Assembly: GCF_051903065.1 (NCBI RefSeq)
Contig: NZ_CP178438.1
DNA length: 64,000 bases
Reading direction: 5' to 3' (one strand)
Source: Escherichia coli
GTDB lineage: Bacteria > Pseudomonadota > Gammaproteobacteria > Enterobacterales > Enterobacteriaceae
The position numbers and the translations under genes are program-made. The notes beneath the pieces are model-generated. The model was not told where the DNA came from, searched no databases, and was given only the letters and a program-made list of their open reading frames with translations. The stretch's first letter is position 1; each line of letters starts with the position of its first letter. Shown here one piece after another: positions 15,984 to 64,000 of this stretch.

Positions 15984-16487
15984 TTATTGATAGTGTTTTA
16001 TGTTCAGATAATGCCCGATGACTTTGTCATGCAGCTCCACCGATTTTGAGAACGACAGCGACTTCCGTCCCAGCCGTGCCAGGTGCTGCCTCAGATTCAG
16101 GTTATGCCGCTCAATTCGCTGCGTATATCGCTTGCTGATTACGTGCAGCTTTCCCTTCAGGCGGGATTCATACAGCGGCCAGCCATCCGTCATCCATATC
16201 ACCACGTCAAAGGGTGACAGCAGGCTCATAAGACGCCCCAGCGTCGCCATAGTGCGTTCACCGAATACGTGCGCAACAACCGTCTTCCGGAGCCTGTCAT
16301 ACGCGTAAAACAGCCAGCGCTGGCGCGATTTAGCCCCGACATAGCCCCACTGTTCGTCCATTTCCGCGCAGACGATGACGTCACTGCCCGGCTGTATGCG
16401 CGAGGTTACCGACTGCGGCCTGAGTTTTTTAAGTGACGTAAAATCGTGTTGAGGCCAACGCCCATAATGCGGGCTGTTGCCCGGCAT
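15984..16487 (-). CDS. insB: IS1 InsB (expressed as InsAB fusion by frameshift)
   Basis: 167-aa ORF overlapping insA in -1 frame. Confidence 0.85.
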
Positions 16488-16681
16488 CCAACGCCATTCA
16501 TGGCCATATCAATGATTTTCTGGTGCGTACCGGGTTGAGAAGCGGTGTAAGTGAACTGCAGTTGCCATGTTTTACGGCAGTGAGAGCAGAGATAGCGCTG
16601 ATGTCCGGCGGTGCTTTTGCCGTTACGCACCACCCCGTCAGTAGCTGAACAGGAGGGACAGCTGATAGAAACAGAAGCCAC
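16406..16681 (-). CDS. insA: IS1 InsA
   Basis: 91 aa [43 protein letters not shown]... Confidence 0.9.
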
Positions 16682-16909: not shown

Positions 16910-17350
16910 GATACCCTTCAAACCAAATCTACCTTCATCCCGTAAACGATGGGTTTGGCAGCACACTTGCCCTATATCTACTCATTTTTACTGCAACAGG
17001 TTGAAATCTCAGCACTGTCAGAAAGCGCTGATGACTAAACAGCCCTGGGCCGGGCGATGTAACCATCACACAGAATCCTGATAGCGAAATATGGCGTGAC
17101 TCGATACTTCACTCCGCAATGCATTCCTTGATGAATTCGCAGGCCCGTGATACACGCGACAGGTCGCTGAATGACGACAATGTCCTGGAAATCAGCGAAC
17201 CGTGTATCCGGAGTACATTTGAGCGACTGTACCAGAACATGAATGAGGTGTTTGGATTAGGCGATTATTAGCAGGGCTAAGCATTTTACTATTATTATTT
17301 TCCGGTTGAGGGATATAGAGCTATCGACAACAACCGGAAAAAGTTTACGT

Positions 17351-18598
17351 CTATATTGCTGAAGGTACAGGCGTTTCCATAACTATTTGCTCGCGTTTTT
17401 TACTCAGGAAGAAAATGCCAAATAGCAACATCAGGCAGACAATACCCGAAATTGCGAAGAAAACTGTCTGGTAGCCTGCGTGGTCAAAGAGTATCCCAGT
17501 CGGCGTTGAAAGCAGCACAATCCCAAGCGAACTGGCAATTTGAAAACCAATCAGAAAGATCGTCGACGACAGGCGCTTATCAAAGTTTGCCACGCTGTAT
17601 TTGAAGACGGATATGACACAAAGTGGAACCTCAATGGCATGTAACAGCTTCACTAATGAAATAATCCAGGGGTTAACGAACAGCGCGCAGGAAAGGATAC
17701 GCAACGCCATAATCACAACACCGATAAGTAATGCATTTTTTGGCCCTACCCGATTCACAAAGAACGGAATAATCGCCATGCACAGCGCTTCGAGTACCAC
17801 CTGGAATGAGTTGAGATAACCATACAGGCGCGTTCCTACATCGTGTGATTCGAATAAACCTGCATAAAAGACGGGAAAAAGTTGTTGATCAAAAATGTTA
17901 TAGAAAGACCACGTCCCAACAATAAATATGACGAAAACCCAGAAGTTTCGATCCTTGAAAACTGCGATAAAATCCTCTTTTTTTACCCCTCCCGCATCCG
18001 CCGCTACGCACTGGTGATCCTTATCTTTAAAACACATGTTGATCATCATAAATACAGCGCCAAATAGCGAGACCAACCAGAAGTTGATATGGGGACTGAT
18101 ACTAAAAAATATGCCGGCAAAGAACGCGCCAATAGCATAGCCAAAAGATCCCCAGGCGCGCGCTGTTCCATATTCGAAATGAAAATTTCGCGCCATTTTT
18201 TCAGTGAAGCTGTCAAGCAAACCGCAGCCCGCCAGATAACCCAGGCCAAAAAAGAGCGCACCCAGAATTAAACCTACAGAAAAATTGCTTTGCAGTAACG
18301 GTTCATAAACGTAAATCATAAACGGTCCGGTCAAGACCAGGATGAAACTCATACACCAGATGAGCGGTTTCTTCAGACCGAGTTTATCCTGAACGATGCC
18401 GTAGAACATCATAAATAGAATACTGGTAAACTGGTTGACCGAATAAAGTGTACCTAATTCCGTCCCTGTCAACCCTAGATGTCCTTTCAGCCAAATAGCG
18501 TATAACGACCACCACAGCGACCAGGAAATAAAAAAGAGAAATGAGTAACTGGATGCAAAACGATAGTACGCATTTCTGAATGGAATATTCAGTGCCAT
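17351..18598 (-). CDS. cscB: Sucrose:H+ symporter CscB (LacY-type MFS)
   Basis: 415 aa, N-terminus MALNIPFRNAYYRFASSYSFLFFISW; arrangement with cscK, cscA, cscR. Confidence 0.9.
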   Translation of the reverse strand: MALNIPFRNAYYRFASSYSFLFFISWSLWWSLYAIWLKGHLGLTGTELGTLYSVNQFTSILFMMFYGIVQDKLGLKKPLIWCMSFILVLTGPFMIYVYEPLLQSNFSVGLILGALFFGLGYLAGCGLLDSFTEKMARNFHFEYGTARAWGSFGYAIGAFFAGIFFSISPHINFWLVSLFGAVFMMINMCFKDKDHQCVAADAGGVKKEDFIAVFKDRNFWVFVIFIVGTWSFYNIFDQQLFPVFYAGLFESHDVGTRLYGYLNSFQVVLEALCMAIIPFFVNRVGPKNALLIGVVIMALRILSCALFVNPWIISLVKLLHAIEVPLCVISVFKYSVANFDKRLSSTIFLIGFQIASSLGIVLLSTPTGILFDHAGYQTVFFAISGIVCLMLLFGIFFLSKKREQIVMETPVPSAI

Positions 18599-27874: not shown

Positions 27875-30800
27875 ATGAAGTTTTTACCCTATATTTTTCT
27901 TCTCTGTTGTGGTCTTTGGTCGACCATAAGTTTCGCAGACGAAGATTACATCGAATATCGTGGCATCAGTAGTAACAACCGTGTCACACTTGATCCACTA
28001 CGTCTGAGCAACAAGGAATTACGTTGGTTAGCGAGCAAAAAAAATCTTGTGATTGCAGTACATAAGTCCCAAACGGCTACGTTGTTGCATACCGATTCGC
28101 AGCAACGGGTTCGTGGTATTAATGCTGATTATTTAAATCTTTTAAAAAGAGCGTTAAATATCAAATTAACACTCCGGGAATACGCCGATCATCAAAAAGC
28201 AATGGACGCGCTGGAAGAAGGTGAAGTCGATATAGTGTTATCACATTTAGTTGCTTCGCCGCCTCTTAATGATGACATTGCTGCAACCAAACCACTGATA
28301 ATTACCTTTCCGGCGCTGGTCACCACCCTTCACGATTCAATGCGACCGCTTACCTCATCAAAACCAGTAAATATTGCTCGAGTAGCAAATTATCCCCCTG
28401 ACGAGGTAATTCATCAATCATTTCCAAAAGCAACAATTATCTCTTTTACAAATTTATATCAGGCATTAGCATCCGTCTCAGCCGGACAGAATGATTACTT
28501 TATTGGTAGTAACATCATTACCAGCAGTATGATTTCCCGCTATTTCACTCACTCCTTAAATGTAGTGAAATATTATAACTCACCGCGTCAATATAATTTT
28601 TTCTTGACCAGAAAAGAATCTGTCGTTCTTAATGAAGTACTCAATCGATTTGTTGATGCTTTGACAAATGAAGTTCGCTATGAAGTATCACAAAATTGGC
28701 TTGATACAGGAAACCTGGCCTTTCTGAACAAACCATTAGAACTCACTGAACATGAAAAACAGTGGATTAAGCAGCATCCCGATTTAAAGGTGCTGGAAAA
28801 TCCTTACTCGCCCCCCTATTCTATGACGGATGAAAATGGCTCGGTTCGGGGCGTTATGGGGGACATTCTTAATATTATTACCTTGCAAACAGGTTTAAAT
28901 TTTTCTCCGATCACCGTTTCACACAATATCCATGCTGGAACACAGCTGAATCCCGGCGGATGGGATATATTACCCGGTGCTATTTATAGTGAAGATAGAG
29001 AAAATAATGTTTTATTTGCTGAAGCCTTCATAACAACGCCTTACGTTTTTGTCATGCAAAAAGCGCCTGACAGTGAACAAACATTAAAAAAAGGAATGAA
29101 AGTTGCCATTCCATATTATTATGAGCTTCATTCGCAATTAAAAGAGATGTATCCGGAGGTAGAGTGGATAAAAGTCGATAACGCCAGCGCTGCATTTCAC
29201 AAGGTCAAGGAAGGCGAACTTGATGCTCTGGTCGCGACACAGTTAAATTCACGTTACATGATCGACCATTACTATCCTAATGAACTTTATCATTTTCTTA
29301 TTCCCGGCGTTCCGAATGCATCGCTTTCGTTCGCTTTTCCTCGCGGAGAACCGGAACTTAAGGATATTATTAATAAAGCACTGAATGCAATCCCCCCAAG
29401 CGAAGTTCTGCGCCTGACCGAAAAATGGATTAAAATGCCCAATGTGACCATTGACACATGGGACCTCTATAGCGAGCAATTTTATATTGTTACGACATTA
29501 TCCGTTTTATTAGTTGGCAGTAGCCTTTTATGGGGATTCTACCTGTTACGCTCAGTTCGTCGTCGTAAAGTCATTCAGGGTGATTTAGAAAACCAAATAT
29601 CATTCCGGAAAGCACTCTCGGATTCCTTACCGAATCCAACTTATGTTGTAAACTGGCAAGGTAATGTCATTAGTCATAATAGTGCTTTTGAACATTATTT
29701 CACTGCGGATTACTACAAAAATGCAATGTTACCATTAGAAAACAGTGACTCCCCCTTTAAAGATGTTTTTTCTAATGCGCATGAAGTCACAGCAGAAACG
29801 AAAGAAAATCGAACAATATACACACAGGTATTTGAAATTGATAATGGCATCGAGAAAAGATGCATTAATCACTGGCATACATTATGCAATCTGCCAGCCA
29901 GCGATCATGCTGTTTATATTTGTGGTTGGCAAGATATTACCGAGACGCGTGATTTAATTCATGCACTCGAAGTAGAGAGAAATAAAGCGATCAATGCAAC
30001 TGTCGCAAAAAGCCAGTTTCTGGCAACAATGAGTCACGAAATAAGAACACCAATTAGCTCCATTATGGGCTTCCTGGAACTTCTGTCGGGTTCTGGTCTT
30101 AGCAAGGAGCAACGTGTGGAGGCGATTTCACTTGCCTACGCCACCGGACAATCACTCCTCGGCTTAATTGGTGAAATCCTTGATGTCGACAAAATTGAAT
30201 CGGGTAACTATCAACTTCAACCACAATGGGTCGATATCCCTACTTTAGTCCAGAACACTTGTCACTCTTTCGGTGCGATTGCTGCAAGCAAATCGATCGC
30301 ATTAAGTTGCAGCAGTACGTTTCCTGAACATTACCTGGTTAAGATCGACCCTCAGGCGTTTAAGCAGGTCTTATCTAATTTACTGAGCAATGCTCTCAAA
30401 TTTACCACCGAGGGGGCAGTAAAAATTACGACCTCCCTGGTTCACATTGATGACAACCACGCTGTAATCAAAATGACGATTATGGATTCTGGAAGTGGAT
30501 TATCACAGGAAGAACAACAACAACTGTTTAAACGTTATAGCCAAACAAGTGCAGGTCGTCAGCAAACAGGTTCTGGTTTAGGCTTAATGATCTGCAAAGA
30601 ATTAATTAAAAACATGCAGGGTGATTTGTCATTAGAAAGTCATCCAGGCATAGGAACAACATTTACGATCACAATCCCGGTAGAAATTACCCAACAAGTG
30701 GCGGCTGTCGAGGCAAAAGCAGAACAACCTATCACACTACCTGAAAAGTTGAGCATATTAATCGCGGATGATCATCCGACCAACAGGCTATTACTCAAAC

Positions 30801-61408: not shown

Positions 61409-62824
61409 TTACTGCTGGTTTTCGCGTTCAGCAATAAAGGCCAGCGCTTTGTTGATACGCTCAATGCTACGTGTCTTACCGATTGCGTGAACGGTAACAT
61501 CCAGTGCCGGAGACTGCCCCGCACCGGTTACGGCGACACGCAGCGGCATACCAACTTTACCCATACCCACTTCCAGCTCATCCGCCGTCGCCTGAATAGC
61601 GTGATGAACGTTTTCAGCGGTCCAGTCAGTAATCGCGGCCAGTTTGTCACGAACCACTTCCAGCGGCTGACGCGCTACCGGACGCAGATGTTTTTTCGCG
61701 GCGTCGGCATCGAACTCAGCAAAATCTTCGTAGAAATAACGGCAGCTCTGTGCCATCGCTTTCAGCGTCTTGCAGCGTTCGCCCAGCAGTTTCACCAGAT
61801 CAGCCAGCTGCGGGCCGTTACGGGTATCGATATTTTCCTGCTCAATGTGCCACTGTAAGTGAGTAGCAACATACTCCGGCGGCAGCGCGTTAATGTAGTG
61901 ATGGTTCAGCCACAGCAGCTTGTCGGTGTTGAACGCACTGGCAGATTTGCTGACGGCATTCAAAGTGAAGTATTTGATCATCTCTTCACGAGTGAAGATT
62001 TCCTGATCGCCGTGGGACCAGCCCAGACGCACCAGATAGTTCAGCAGTGCTTCTGGCAAATAACCGTCATCACGATACTGCATTACGCTGACTGCCCCGT
62101 GACGTTTGGACAGTTTTTTGCCGTCATCGCCGTTGATCATAGAAACGTGCGCGTAAACCGGTACCGGCGCTTTCAGGGCTTTAAGAATGTTGATCTGGCG
62201 TGGCGTGTTGTTGATATGGTCTTCGCCACGGATAACGTGGGTGATTTCCATATCCCAGTCATCGACAACCACACAGAAGTTATAGGTTGGGGAACCATCG
62301 GTACGGCGGATAATAAGATCGTCCAGTTCCTGGTTGCTGAACTCGATCGGACCACGGATCTGATCGTCAAAAACAACAGAACCTTCCTGCGGGTTAGCAA
62401 AACGTACGACACACGGCTCATCATCAGCGTGATGCTCATGACTGTGGCGGCAGCGACCATCATAACGCGGCTTCTCACCTTTCGCCATTTGCTCTTCGCG
62501 CAGCGCTTCCAGGCGCTCTTTAGAGCAATAGCATTTATAAGCTGTGCCCTCTTCCAGCATCTGATCGATCACCGCGTTGTAGCGATCAAAACGTTTGGTC
62601 TGGAAGTACGGACCTTCATCCCACTCCAGGCTCAGCCAGTTCATGCCATCCATAATGGCTTCGATAGCTTCCGGCGTGGAACGCTCAAGATCGGTGTCTT
62701 CAATACGCAGCACGAACTCACCGCCGTGATTACGTGCAAAAAGCCAGGAGTAAAGAGCAGTACGCGCGCCGCCAACGTGCAGATAGCCTGTTGGGCTTGG
62801 CGCGAAGCGAGTTTTGATTTTCAT
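61409..62824 (-). CDS. gltX: Glutamyl-tRNA synthetase
   Basis: 471 aa [27 protein letters not shown] (HIGH motif) and KLSKR. Confidence 0.97.
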
Positions 62825-63082
62825 GAAATGGCCTTACGTTTAGAAAGATGCCGACAACCGGCAAATCCTGGAAAAATTGAGTGGGCGATATTCTATCACT
62901 CCCGCCTGATTCCTCAATGTAGTTCGGGTTGCAACCTTACGCATTATTGTTTTCGTTGACAAATTGCGCAACACGGTCTGTTTTGCGATCATCTTGCTTA
63001 AATTTACGACGAACGAACAATTTCTTTAGAAAATGCGTTGACTCATTTTGAACTCTCCCTATAATGCGACTCCACACAGCGG

Positions 63083-63158
63083 GGGTGATTAGCTCAGCTG
63101 GGAGAGCACCTCCCTTACAAGGAGGGGGTCGGCGGTTCGATCCCGTCATCACCCACCA
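63083..63158 (+). tRNA. valU: tRNA-Val (UAC)
   Basis: GGGTGATTAGCTCAGCTGGGAGAGCACCTCCCTTACAAGGAGGGGGTCGGCGGTTCGATCCCGTCATCACCCACCA. Confidence 0.95.
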
Positions 63159-63202
63159 ACTACTTTATGTAGTCTCCGCCGTGTAGCAAGAAATTGAGAA
63201 GT

Positions 63203-63278
63203 GGGTGATTAGCTCAGCTGGGAGAGCACCTCCCTTACAAGGAGGGGGTCGGCGGTTCGATCCCGTCATCACCCACCA
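63203..63278 (+). tRNA. valX: tRNA-Val (UAC)
   Basis: Identical copy. Confidence 0.95.
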
Positions 63279-63324
63279 CTTTCTCACCAGCTAAATTTCT
63301 TGTAACAATGTGAAGTACCGAAGT

Positions 63325-63400
63325 GGGTGATTAGCTCAGCTGGGAGAGCACCTCCCTTACAAGGAGGGGGTCGGCGGTTCGATCCCGTCATCACCCACCA
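63325..63400 (+). tRNA. valY: tRNA-Val (UAC)
   Basis: Identical copy. Confidence 0.95.
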
Positions 63401-63404
63401 CTTC

Positions 63405-63480
63405 GGGTCGTTAGCTCAGTTGGTAGAGCAGTTGACTTTTAATCAATTGGTCGCAGGTTCGAATCCTGCACGACCCACCA
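63405..63480 (+). tRNA. lysV: tRNA-Lys (UUU)
   Basis: GGGTCGTTAGCTCAGTTGGTAGAGCAGTTGACTTTTAATCAATTGGTCGCAGGTTCGAATCCTGCACGACCCACCA. Confidence 0.95.
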
Positions 63481-63487
63481 ATGTAAA

Positions 63488-63512
63488 AAAGCGCCCTAAA
63501 GGCGCTTTTTTG
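63488..63512 (+). terminator. Rho-independent terminator of the valU-lysV tRNA operon
   Basis: gcgcc-ctaaa-ggcgc followed by TTTTTT. Confidence 0.8.
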
Positions 63513-63599
63513 CTATCTGCGATTTGTAAGATTGATTTTTCTTCTCAAGTTCCTTGTTCTTCTACCGATATTACCTCGTACAGTGACGAGGACTGAACA

Positions 63600-63728
63600 A
63601 TGGCCACTATCTCTTCAACTTCAATTCCTTCCATACAAACACAGAGTAGTAACATGGCATCACAAGGTAGCGATGTTGCTTCACAAATCGCGCGGATAAG
63701 TCAGCAAATCATCAAACTCACTCAATAA
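63600..63728 (+). CDS. Small Ser/Gln-rich ORF (42 aa) ending at in-frame TAA; downstream frame continues as Gln-rich coiled-coil without start codon
   Basis: MATISSTSIPSIQTQSSNMASQGSDVASQIARISQQIIKLTQ* then IKEIVDTSGSAEDKQKQAELIQQQITLLETQLAQLQRQQAEKAQEKEQRLS... in same frame. Confidence 0.3.
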   Translation: MATISSTSIPSIQTQSSNMASQGSDVASQIARISQQIIKLTQ

Positions 63729-64000
63729 ATTAAAGAGATTGTAGACACTAGCGGCAGTGCTGAAGACAAACAAAAACAGGCCGAATTGATTCAACAGCAA
63801 ATCACCCTACTGGAAACACAACTGGCGCAGTTGCAGAGACAGCAGGCAGAAAAGGCGCAGGAAAAAGAGCAGCGTTTGTCTCTGAATGTATCCCTTCTAA
63901 ATCCTGTTGAAAAAACGACTCATATCGATATCTATATCTGATACAACGGATCCCCTTCCCGCCCAGCCATTAGCGCATTGCCCTGGTCTCGTACCACGTC

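Follow-up and report, generated by a model that had tools for sequence, protein, structure and literature searches.

The end of the window (the whole 64,000-nt stretch of Escherichia coli DNA analysed here) is occupied by gltX, a tRNA operon, a broken gene of the FlxA-like family (flx in what follows) and the 3' end of yfeR (Table 1). The tRNA operon, composed of three tRNA-Val(UAC) genes and one tRNA-Lys(UUU) gene, forms the left anchor of a variable locus. It is closed by an intrinsic terminator consisting of an A6 run (63485-63490), a GCGCC-CTAAA-GGCGC hairpin (63491-63505) and a T6 run (63506-63511), which is identical in K-12, O157:H7, Pseudocitrobacter, and Kluyvera. A simple consensus terminator scan did not list this element, which is described from the sequence instead; the miss is probably due to the A and T runs, which lengthen the terminator stem. 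On the right, flx and yfeR are convergent, and the stop region of flx overlaps the yfeR 3' end by 10 nt (63932-63941). The peptide encoded on the minus strand at 63932-64000 (…VRDQGNALMAGREGDPLYQI) is 100% identical to residues 287-308 of K-12 YfeR (tblastn). The core genes resume at yfeR, inside the coordinates of the feature described in the original prediction, and its statement that neither strand carries the C-terminus of a LysR-family protein does not hold: these are the last 22 residues of YfeR, although not of XapR.

Table 1. Features at the end of the window
Feature	Position	Strand	Basis or remark
gltX	61409-62824	minus	
Sigma-70-like promoter TTGACT-16-TATAAT	63038-63065	plus	Upstream of the tRNA genes; promoter scan
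valU-valX-valY-lysV tRNA operon	63083-63480	plus	ARAGORN; Rfam tRNA matches
Intrinsic terminator of the tRNA operon	63485-63511	plus	Read directly from the sequence
Segment without counterpart in K-12-type genomes	63528-63930		Breaks of K-12 homology
FliA-type promoter-like site	63545-63572	plus	Matrix and conservation
Shine-Dalgarno-like GAGGA	63588-63592	plus	7 nt ahead of the ATG; sequence
FlxA-like (PF14282) pseudogene, 113 codons	63600-63941	plus	Pfam; RefSeq; intact orthologues
Premature stop TAA at codon 43	63726-63728	plus	Single C-to-T relative to CAA (Gln)
yfeR 3' end, last 22 codons and stop	63932-64000	minus	ORF list; annotation; tblastn

The flx frame opens at an ATG at 63600, runs through 42 Ser/Thr/Gln-rich codons to the premature TAA, and continues for 70 codons to a TGA at 63939-63941, spanning 342 nt in total. 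With the stop read as Gln, it matches the Pfam family PF14282 (FlxA) at 53.6 bits, as compared to 50.4 bits for the O157:H7 orthologue and a gathering cut-off of 26.3 bits. The last 520 bases of the window are 100% identical to E. coli ECNB21-M121, in which RefSeq labels the stretch a pseudogene ('FlxA-like family protein', 'internal stop') and yfeR-yfeH-ypeB-ligA-zipA lie directly after it. Intact orthologues of 113 aa occupy the same position between lysV and yfeR in O157:H7 (WP_000201407.1 in strain 3-5-1; ECs_3279, gene 'flxA', in Sakai), and a further intact copy is found in strain XH990 (WP_001625605.1); where the window has TAA at codon 43, these genes have Gln or His. The conceptual protein shares 43% identity over 74 residues with FlxA from the Qin prophage of K-12 (E 2e-12).

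An exhaustive HMMER search, used in place of a word-indexed protein search that gave only 8 family matches, yielded 80 representatives of the FlxA-like family, nearly all of 105-120 aa. An alignment of 53 members contains a low-complexity N-terminus, two helical segments, a G-(I/V)-N-R-P motif (degenerate in E. coli), and a C-terminal (I/V)D(I/V)Y(I/V). The window's frame has the size, the low-complexity N-terminus, the two helices and the IDIYI ending of the family, but not the intact frame of a functional member, as the TAA interrupts it. Because of the Pfam match, the intact orthologues, and the low dN/dS in Kluyvera (see below), the frame is a real gene rather than a chance ORF. The original prediction had described a 42-codon ORF ending at the TAA with about 70 further codons in the same frame, and had read them as a protein of roughly 114 aa split by a nonsense mutation; both the layout and the reading are borne out, and the homologues proposed as a check of the conceptual translation turned out to be FlxA-like orthologues. 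The flx copy after lysV is an ordinary strain-level pseudogene that is already annotated in public genomes. Literature searches for the locus tags ECs3279 and Z3670, or for 'FlxA-like', returned nothing relevant.

The lesion itself is minimal. Over 414 nt, XH990 differs from the window at one base only, position 63726 (C in XH990, T in the window), which turns Gln43 (CAA) into TAA. The window's haplotype is present at 99.8% over these 414 nt in 17 genomes, of which XH990 is the only one compared base by base; between the O157:H7 allele and the window, 9 of 491 bases differ. Given the near-identical intact haplotype of XH990, the pseudogene in the window is the result of a recent single transition. 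An old pseudogene on a long branch had been suspected, as six sampled alleles all differed from the window at 63655, 63770, and 63863; this was rejected, since the 17 genomes share the haplotype in intact form and, in the one compared (XH990), 63726 is the sole difference.

Among 5426 complete E. coli genomes, codon 43 is CAA in 1003, CAC (His, the O157:H7/O55:H7 lineage) in 308 and TAA in 4, as counted with 53-mers designed so that every 28-base seed word spans the codon. One of the TAA carriers, OkiPb01695, has a haplotype separated from that of the window by six other sites and closest to the intact allele of LH10-b-1. The occurrence of the same stop on two haplotypes means that the mutation recurred or that a short tract was transferred by gene conversion. 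A sequencing or assembly error in a gene that is actually intact might be considered, as only one base separates the window from an intact allele; with the TAA shared by four complete genomes, each assembled independently, and by two haplotypes that are six other sites apart, such an error is extremely improbable.

The C-to-T transition at 63726 cuts the product inside the first predicted helix, with the loss of the second helix and of the conserved C-terminal IDIYI tail, and the gene is dead in the window. Conceivably, the split gene could still work through its 42-aa N-terminal peptide, through a restart product covering the C-terminal helix, or both: its promoter and Shine-Dalgarno site are unbroken, and an in-frame TTG at 63786 could yield a product of 51 aa. 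Nevertheless, no ribosome-binding site is evident ahead of this TTG, the stop falls within helix 1 of the predicted hairpin, the TAA allele is rare (4 of about 1316), and the family is uniformly about 105-120 aa long, which together make residual function very unlikely.

The segment that carries flx is one of two alternative occupants of the lysV-yfeR interval. The window is homologous to K-12 up to about 63527 (ending in ...ctatctgcgatttg) and again from 63931 onwards. Between the same flanks (the lysV terminator on the left, the yfeR stop on the right), a K-12-type genome (L002) has an rtT-like repeat, xapR, a DUF1427 gene, xapB, xapA, and yfeN, i.e., about 4.4 kb of xanthosine-utilisation genes and a Tsx-family channel gene (yfeN), as opposed to about 0.4 kb in the window. 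Any remnant of flx in K-12 is limited to 10-11 nt of the yfeR 3' end itself. The flx segment was detected in about 1316 of the 5426 complete genomes and the K-12 xapR junction (query: L002 3590-3850) in 4085, so that the two states nearly partition E. coli: flx is found in about a quarter of the strains, and the remainder, K-12 included, carry xapR-xapB-xapA-yfeN. The original prediction was thus correct that the sequence after lysV differs from K-12 and varies among strains, and the comparison with the K-12 lysV-xapR junction that it proposed places the flx segment outside K-12-type genomes.

It had further suggested that the region might be the edge of a strain-specific island integrated at the lysV tRNA gene. 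The segment is missing from K-12, adjoins a tRNA gene, and has a G+C content of 41.9% as opposed to 48.2% for the whole window; it consists of one gene rich in Gln, Lys, Glu, and Ile codons, the orthologues of which have 53-54% G+C in Kluyvera and Pluralibacter. Against an island edge, the variable DNA amounts to only about 400 bp and contains no integrase, yfeR begins already at 63932, and yfeH, ypeB, and ligA follow in the identical genome ECNB21-M121, with no mobility genes adjacent to the tRNA. With up to 2 mismatches allowed, the 64-kb window contains the 3' end of lysV once only, with no such repeat within 63000-64000; of the two features that the original prediction proposed to look for, the downstream integrase is missing after the locus in ECNB21-M121 and the lysV 3'-end repeat is missing from the window. 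As the same gene order is common to at least three other genera, the flx locus is a long-standing alternative arrangement and not a recent island, and an island edge at lysV has next to no probability. For the window, the result is a corrected annotation (a FlxA-like pseudogene and a yfeR 3' end in place of an island edge); it is K-12, not the window strain, that carries the larger extra block.

Several other features of the locus vary among strains. An rtT-like element flanked by a duplication (about 60 bp) of the 3' end and terminator of lysV is found in K-12 and in some strains that carry flx (LH10-b-1, GPEC1337, and XH990), and is absent from the window (63481-63527, compared with L002 3431-3603, L015, L017, and L030), where Rfam likewise identified no RtT element. 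The duplicated lysV 3' end flanking this element is a feature of K-12 and not of the window strain, and the polymorphism is independent of the flx/xap state. Two diverged xapR types exist in E. coli, one at least 95% identical to K-12 (2497 genomes) and one at 80-90% identity (1587 genomes). K-12 XapR is 89% identical to XapR of some Salmonella and only 76-79% identical to that of E. albertii or E. fergusonii. In O157:H7 Sakai, yfeR (ECs_3280; L024 25445-26371), which adjoins an intact flx, is a pseudogene in the Sakai record.

The order gltX-tRNAs-flx-yfeR-yfeH-ypeB-ligA, the orientation of the genes, and the flx/yfeR 3' overlap are common to several other taxa. At these syntenic loci, the flx protein is 82-88% identical in Pseudocitrobacter, 55-61% identical in six Kluyvera species, and 59% identical in Pluralibacter; the order is also kept in the more distantly related GCA_008631835.1, where the family member is 38% identical. 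In Salmonella, E. albertii, and E. fergusonii, flx is missing and the site is taken by xapA-xapB-xapR, accompanied in some cases by yfeN and yfeR. Since flx and xap are both seen in outgroup genera, both occupants are old, and the outgroups would back either as the ancestral state in E. coli. In Salmonella (L020 8898-9251), a called 117-aa 'gene' between xapR and lysV corresponds to tandem REP-like palindromic repeats and is not a protein gene.

This conservation also bears on the possibility that flx is a prophage remnant, namely the last gene of a phage once integrated at lysV. The K-12 paralogue flxA (b1566) sits within the cryptic prophage Qin, the frame has a weak match to phrog_11044 (E 3.8e-8), and the low G+C content of the segment and its tRNA neighbour would fit such an origin. 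However, tblastn against 50,697 phage records gave zero matches, neighbouring phage genes are absent, and the position, orientation, and yfeR overlap are kept across several genera, with purifying selection in Kluyvera; a phage origin at this site is accordingly unlikely. The window gene resembles K-12 FlxA in Pfam family, length, the IDIY(I/V) ending, and a sigma-28 promoter at a similar distance from the ATG, but differs in being chromosomal, syntenic across genera, and broken, whereas the K-12 gene is prophage-borne and located elsewhere.

Divergence at the locus is uneven. Between E. coli and P. faecalis, dS is 0.72 for yfeR and 0.55 for flx (which Salmonella lacks), whereas yfeR dS between E. 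coli and Salmonella reaches 2.07; yfeR dN is 0.02 to Pseudocitrobacter and 0.16 to Salmonella. For ligA, dS is 1.10 to P. faecalis and 1.20 to Salmonella. E. albertii and E. fergusonii have no yfeR at this locus. Because yfeR and flx are unexpectedly close to Pseudocitrobacter while ligA is equidistant, these values suggest a past lateral exchange of the flx-yfeR block between E. coli and Pseudocitrobacter through homologous recombination. A 5.5-kb contig (L004) of an uncultured Pseudocitrobacter metagenome-assembled genome has an flx that is nearly E. coli-like (dS 0.10) next to a yfeR with a dS of 0.72, as well as an unusual tRNA array (Lys-Val-Lys-Lys-Lys); the mismatch between the two genes could reflect a recent transfer or a chimeric metagenome assembly.

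The selective regime of flx differs between genera. Pairwise dN/dS values in Kluyvera are 0.02-0.06, and flx is there a genuine constrained protein gene under strong purifying selection. Within E. coli, dN/dS is 0.46-0.65, and among seven alleles 19 codons are polymorphic (13 non-synonymous versus 6 synonymous). As the gene is absent from about three quarters of the strains, shows this relaxed dN/dS, and has TAA at codon 43 on two haplotypes, it is probably dispensable and decaying in E. coli. This combination of strong constraint in one genus and decay in another, like the retention of a sigma-28 promoter across genera described below, may be useful to research on the flagellar regulon.

The link to the flagellar regulon is provided by the region upstream of flx. 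A sigma-28 promoter-like site of the TAAAGTTT-N11-GCCGATAA type, as expected for FliA-regulon or class 3 genes, is present ahead of the ATG: the site TCAAGTTC-N11-ACCGATAT scores 15.5 bits (median of known sites 16.4) and ranks second among 127,946 window positions on a FliA matrix built from 52 ChIP-seq sites (Fitzgerald et al. 2014, PMC4183435 Table 2). In 11 of 11 orthologous loci, TCAAGTyy-N11-GCCGATAy is found with fixed spacing 55-58 nt upstream of the ATG, even where the spacers and flanks are too divergent to be aligned, so that the chromosomal flx keeps a sigma-28 promoter-like site across several genera. K-12 flxA and distant family members from unrelated contexts likewise have sigma-28-like sites, at a distance of 50-57 nt upstream. 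No sigma-70-like site was detected by the scan between the terminator and the flx ATG. FlxA has been counted as a FliA-dependent gene since the 1990s. Expression of K-12 flxA is 280, as compared to 2 in a fliA deletion (PMC4183435). On the basis of the motif and of the FliA dependence of this 43%-identical paralogue, intact flx is probably a class-3-type member of the sigma-28 regulon, transcribed from the conserved site.

The first base of the -10 element (63564) is A in the window and in several E. coli strains with an intact ORF; O157:H7, divergent E. coli alleles, and every other genus examined have G. The A costs about 3 bits on the matrix; the K-12 ycgR and fliDST promoters likewise have A at the equivalent position (PMC4183435). 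A possible 6-bp hairpin in the 5' leader (63574-63591, including GAGGA), which by eye appeared to be compensatory between E. coli and Kluyvera, was dropped: RNAalifold found no consensus structure across the orthologues, and single-sequence fold z-scores ranged from -1.8 (the window) to +0.8.

Taken together, the end of the window is best explained, with a probability of roughly 0.85, as the compact flx allele of a two-state lysV-yfeR locus, which is broken here by a nonsense mutation and the intact form of which would be driven by FliA.

The AlphaFold2 model of the flx protein (mean pLDDT 69.7, with the helices above 85) comprises disordered residues 1-21, helices at 23-47 and 54-96, and disordered residues 98-113. 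The predicted fold is accordingly a helical hairpin flanked by disordered tails, with codon 43, the site of the stop, falling in the first of the two helices. A profile search against PDB sequences and a Foldseek search with the model retrieved nothing more specific than coiled coils and helical hairpins, generic or designed (best Foldseek E 0.22). A match to CdsO, a type III secretion protein in complex with CdsV, was not significant.

What an intact flx protein might do can be approached through its paralogue. According to PMC4183435, K-12 flxA plays no obvious part in motility or in the synthesis of flagella. Extracellular proteomics offers another hint, pertinent to the flagellar type III export pathway, the substrates of which include FlgK, FliD, FliC, FlgL, and FlgM. 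In an E. coli exoproteome, 'Protein FlxA' is enriched beside these proteins (PMC6391000). From this one proteomics table on FlxA, it may be speculated that the flx protein is exported by the flagellar type III apparatus as one of its substrates, or serves it as a small accessory factor. FlgM offers a functional analogy only: it is also small, with a disordered N-terminus and a class-3-type promoter, and FlxA was found extracellularly alongside it, but the flx protein shares with it no sequence or significant fold similarity in the comparisons made, and binding of sigma-28 is not implied. In a broader and rather doubtful reading, FlxA-like proteins would be conserved sigma-28-controlled helical hairpins exported by, or acting on, the flagellar type III apparatus, and the lysV-yfeR copy would be an ancient chromosomal orthologue that E. 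coli is losing via replacement by xap, relaxed selection, and recurrent nonsense mutation. The conserved orthologue and the old proteomics hint together might mark FlxA as a candidate flagellar export substrate.

Two other sites in the window match the FliA matrix. The highest score of the whole window (20.9 bits) belongs to TAAACTTTTTCCGGTTGTTGTCGATAGC at 17320-17347 on the minus strand, just past the stop of a 415-aa MFS sugar-transporter ORF (17351-18598, minus), which probably corresponds to the RefSeq 'oligosaccharide MFS transporter' in the matching genome, the mapping of coordinates being uncertain; the site lies upstream of transposase-like ORFs (15984-16681) and has no obvious gene to drive. 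The second, TCAACTTCAACCACAATGGGTCGATATC at 30211-30238 on the plus strand (14.0 bits), is identical in sequence to a published intragenic FliA ChIP-seq site inside evgS (PMC4183435 Table 2).
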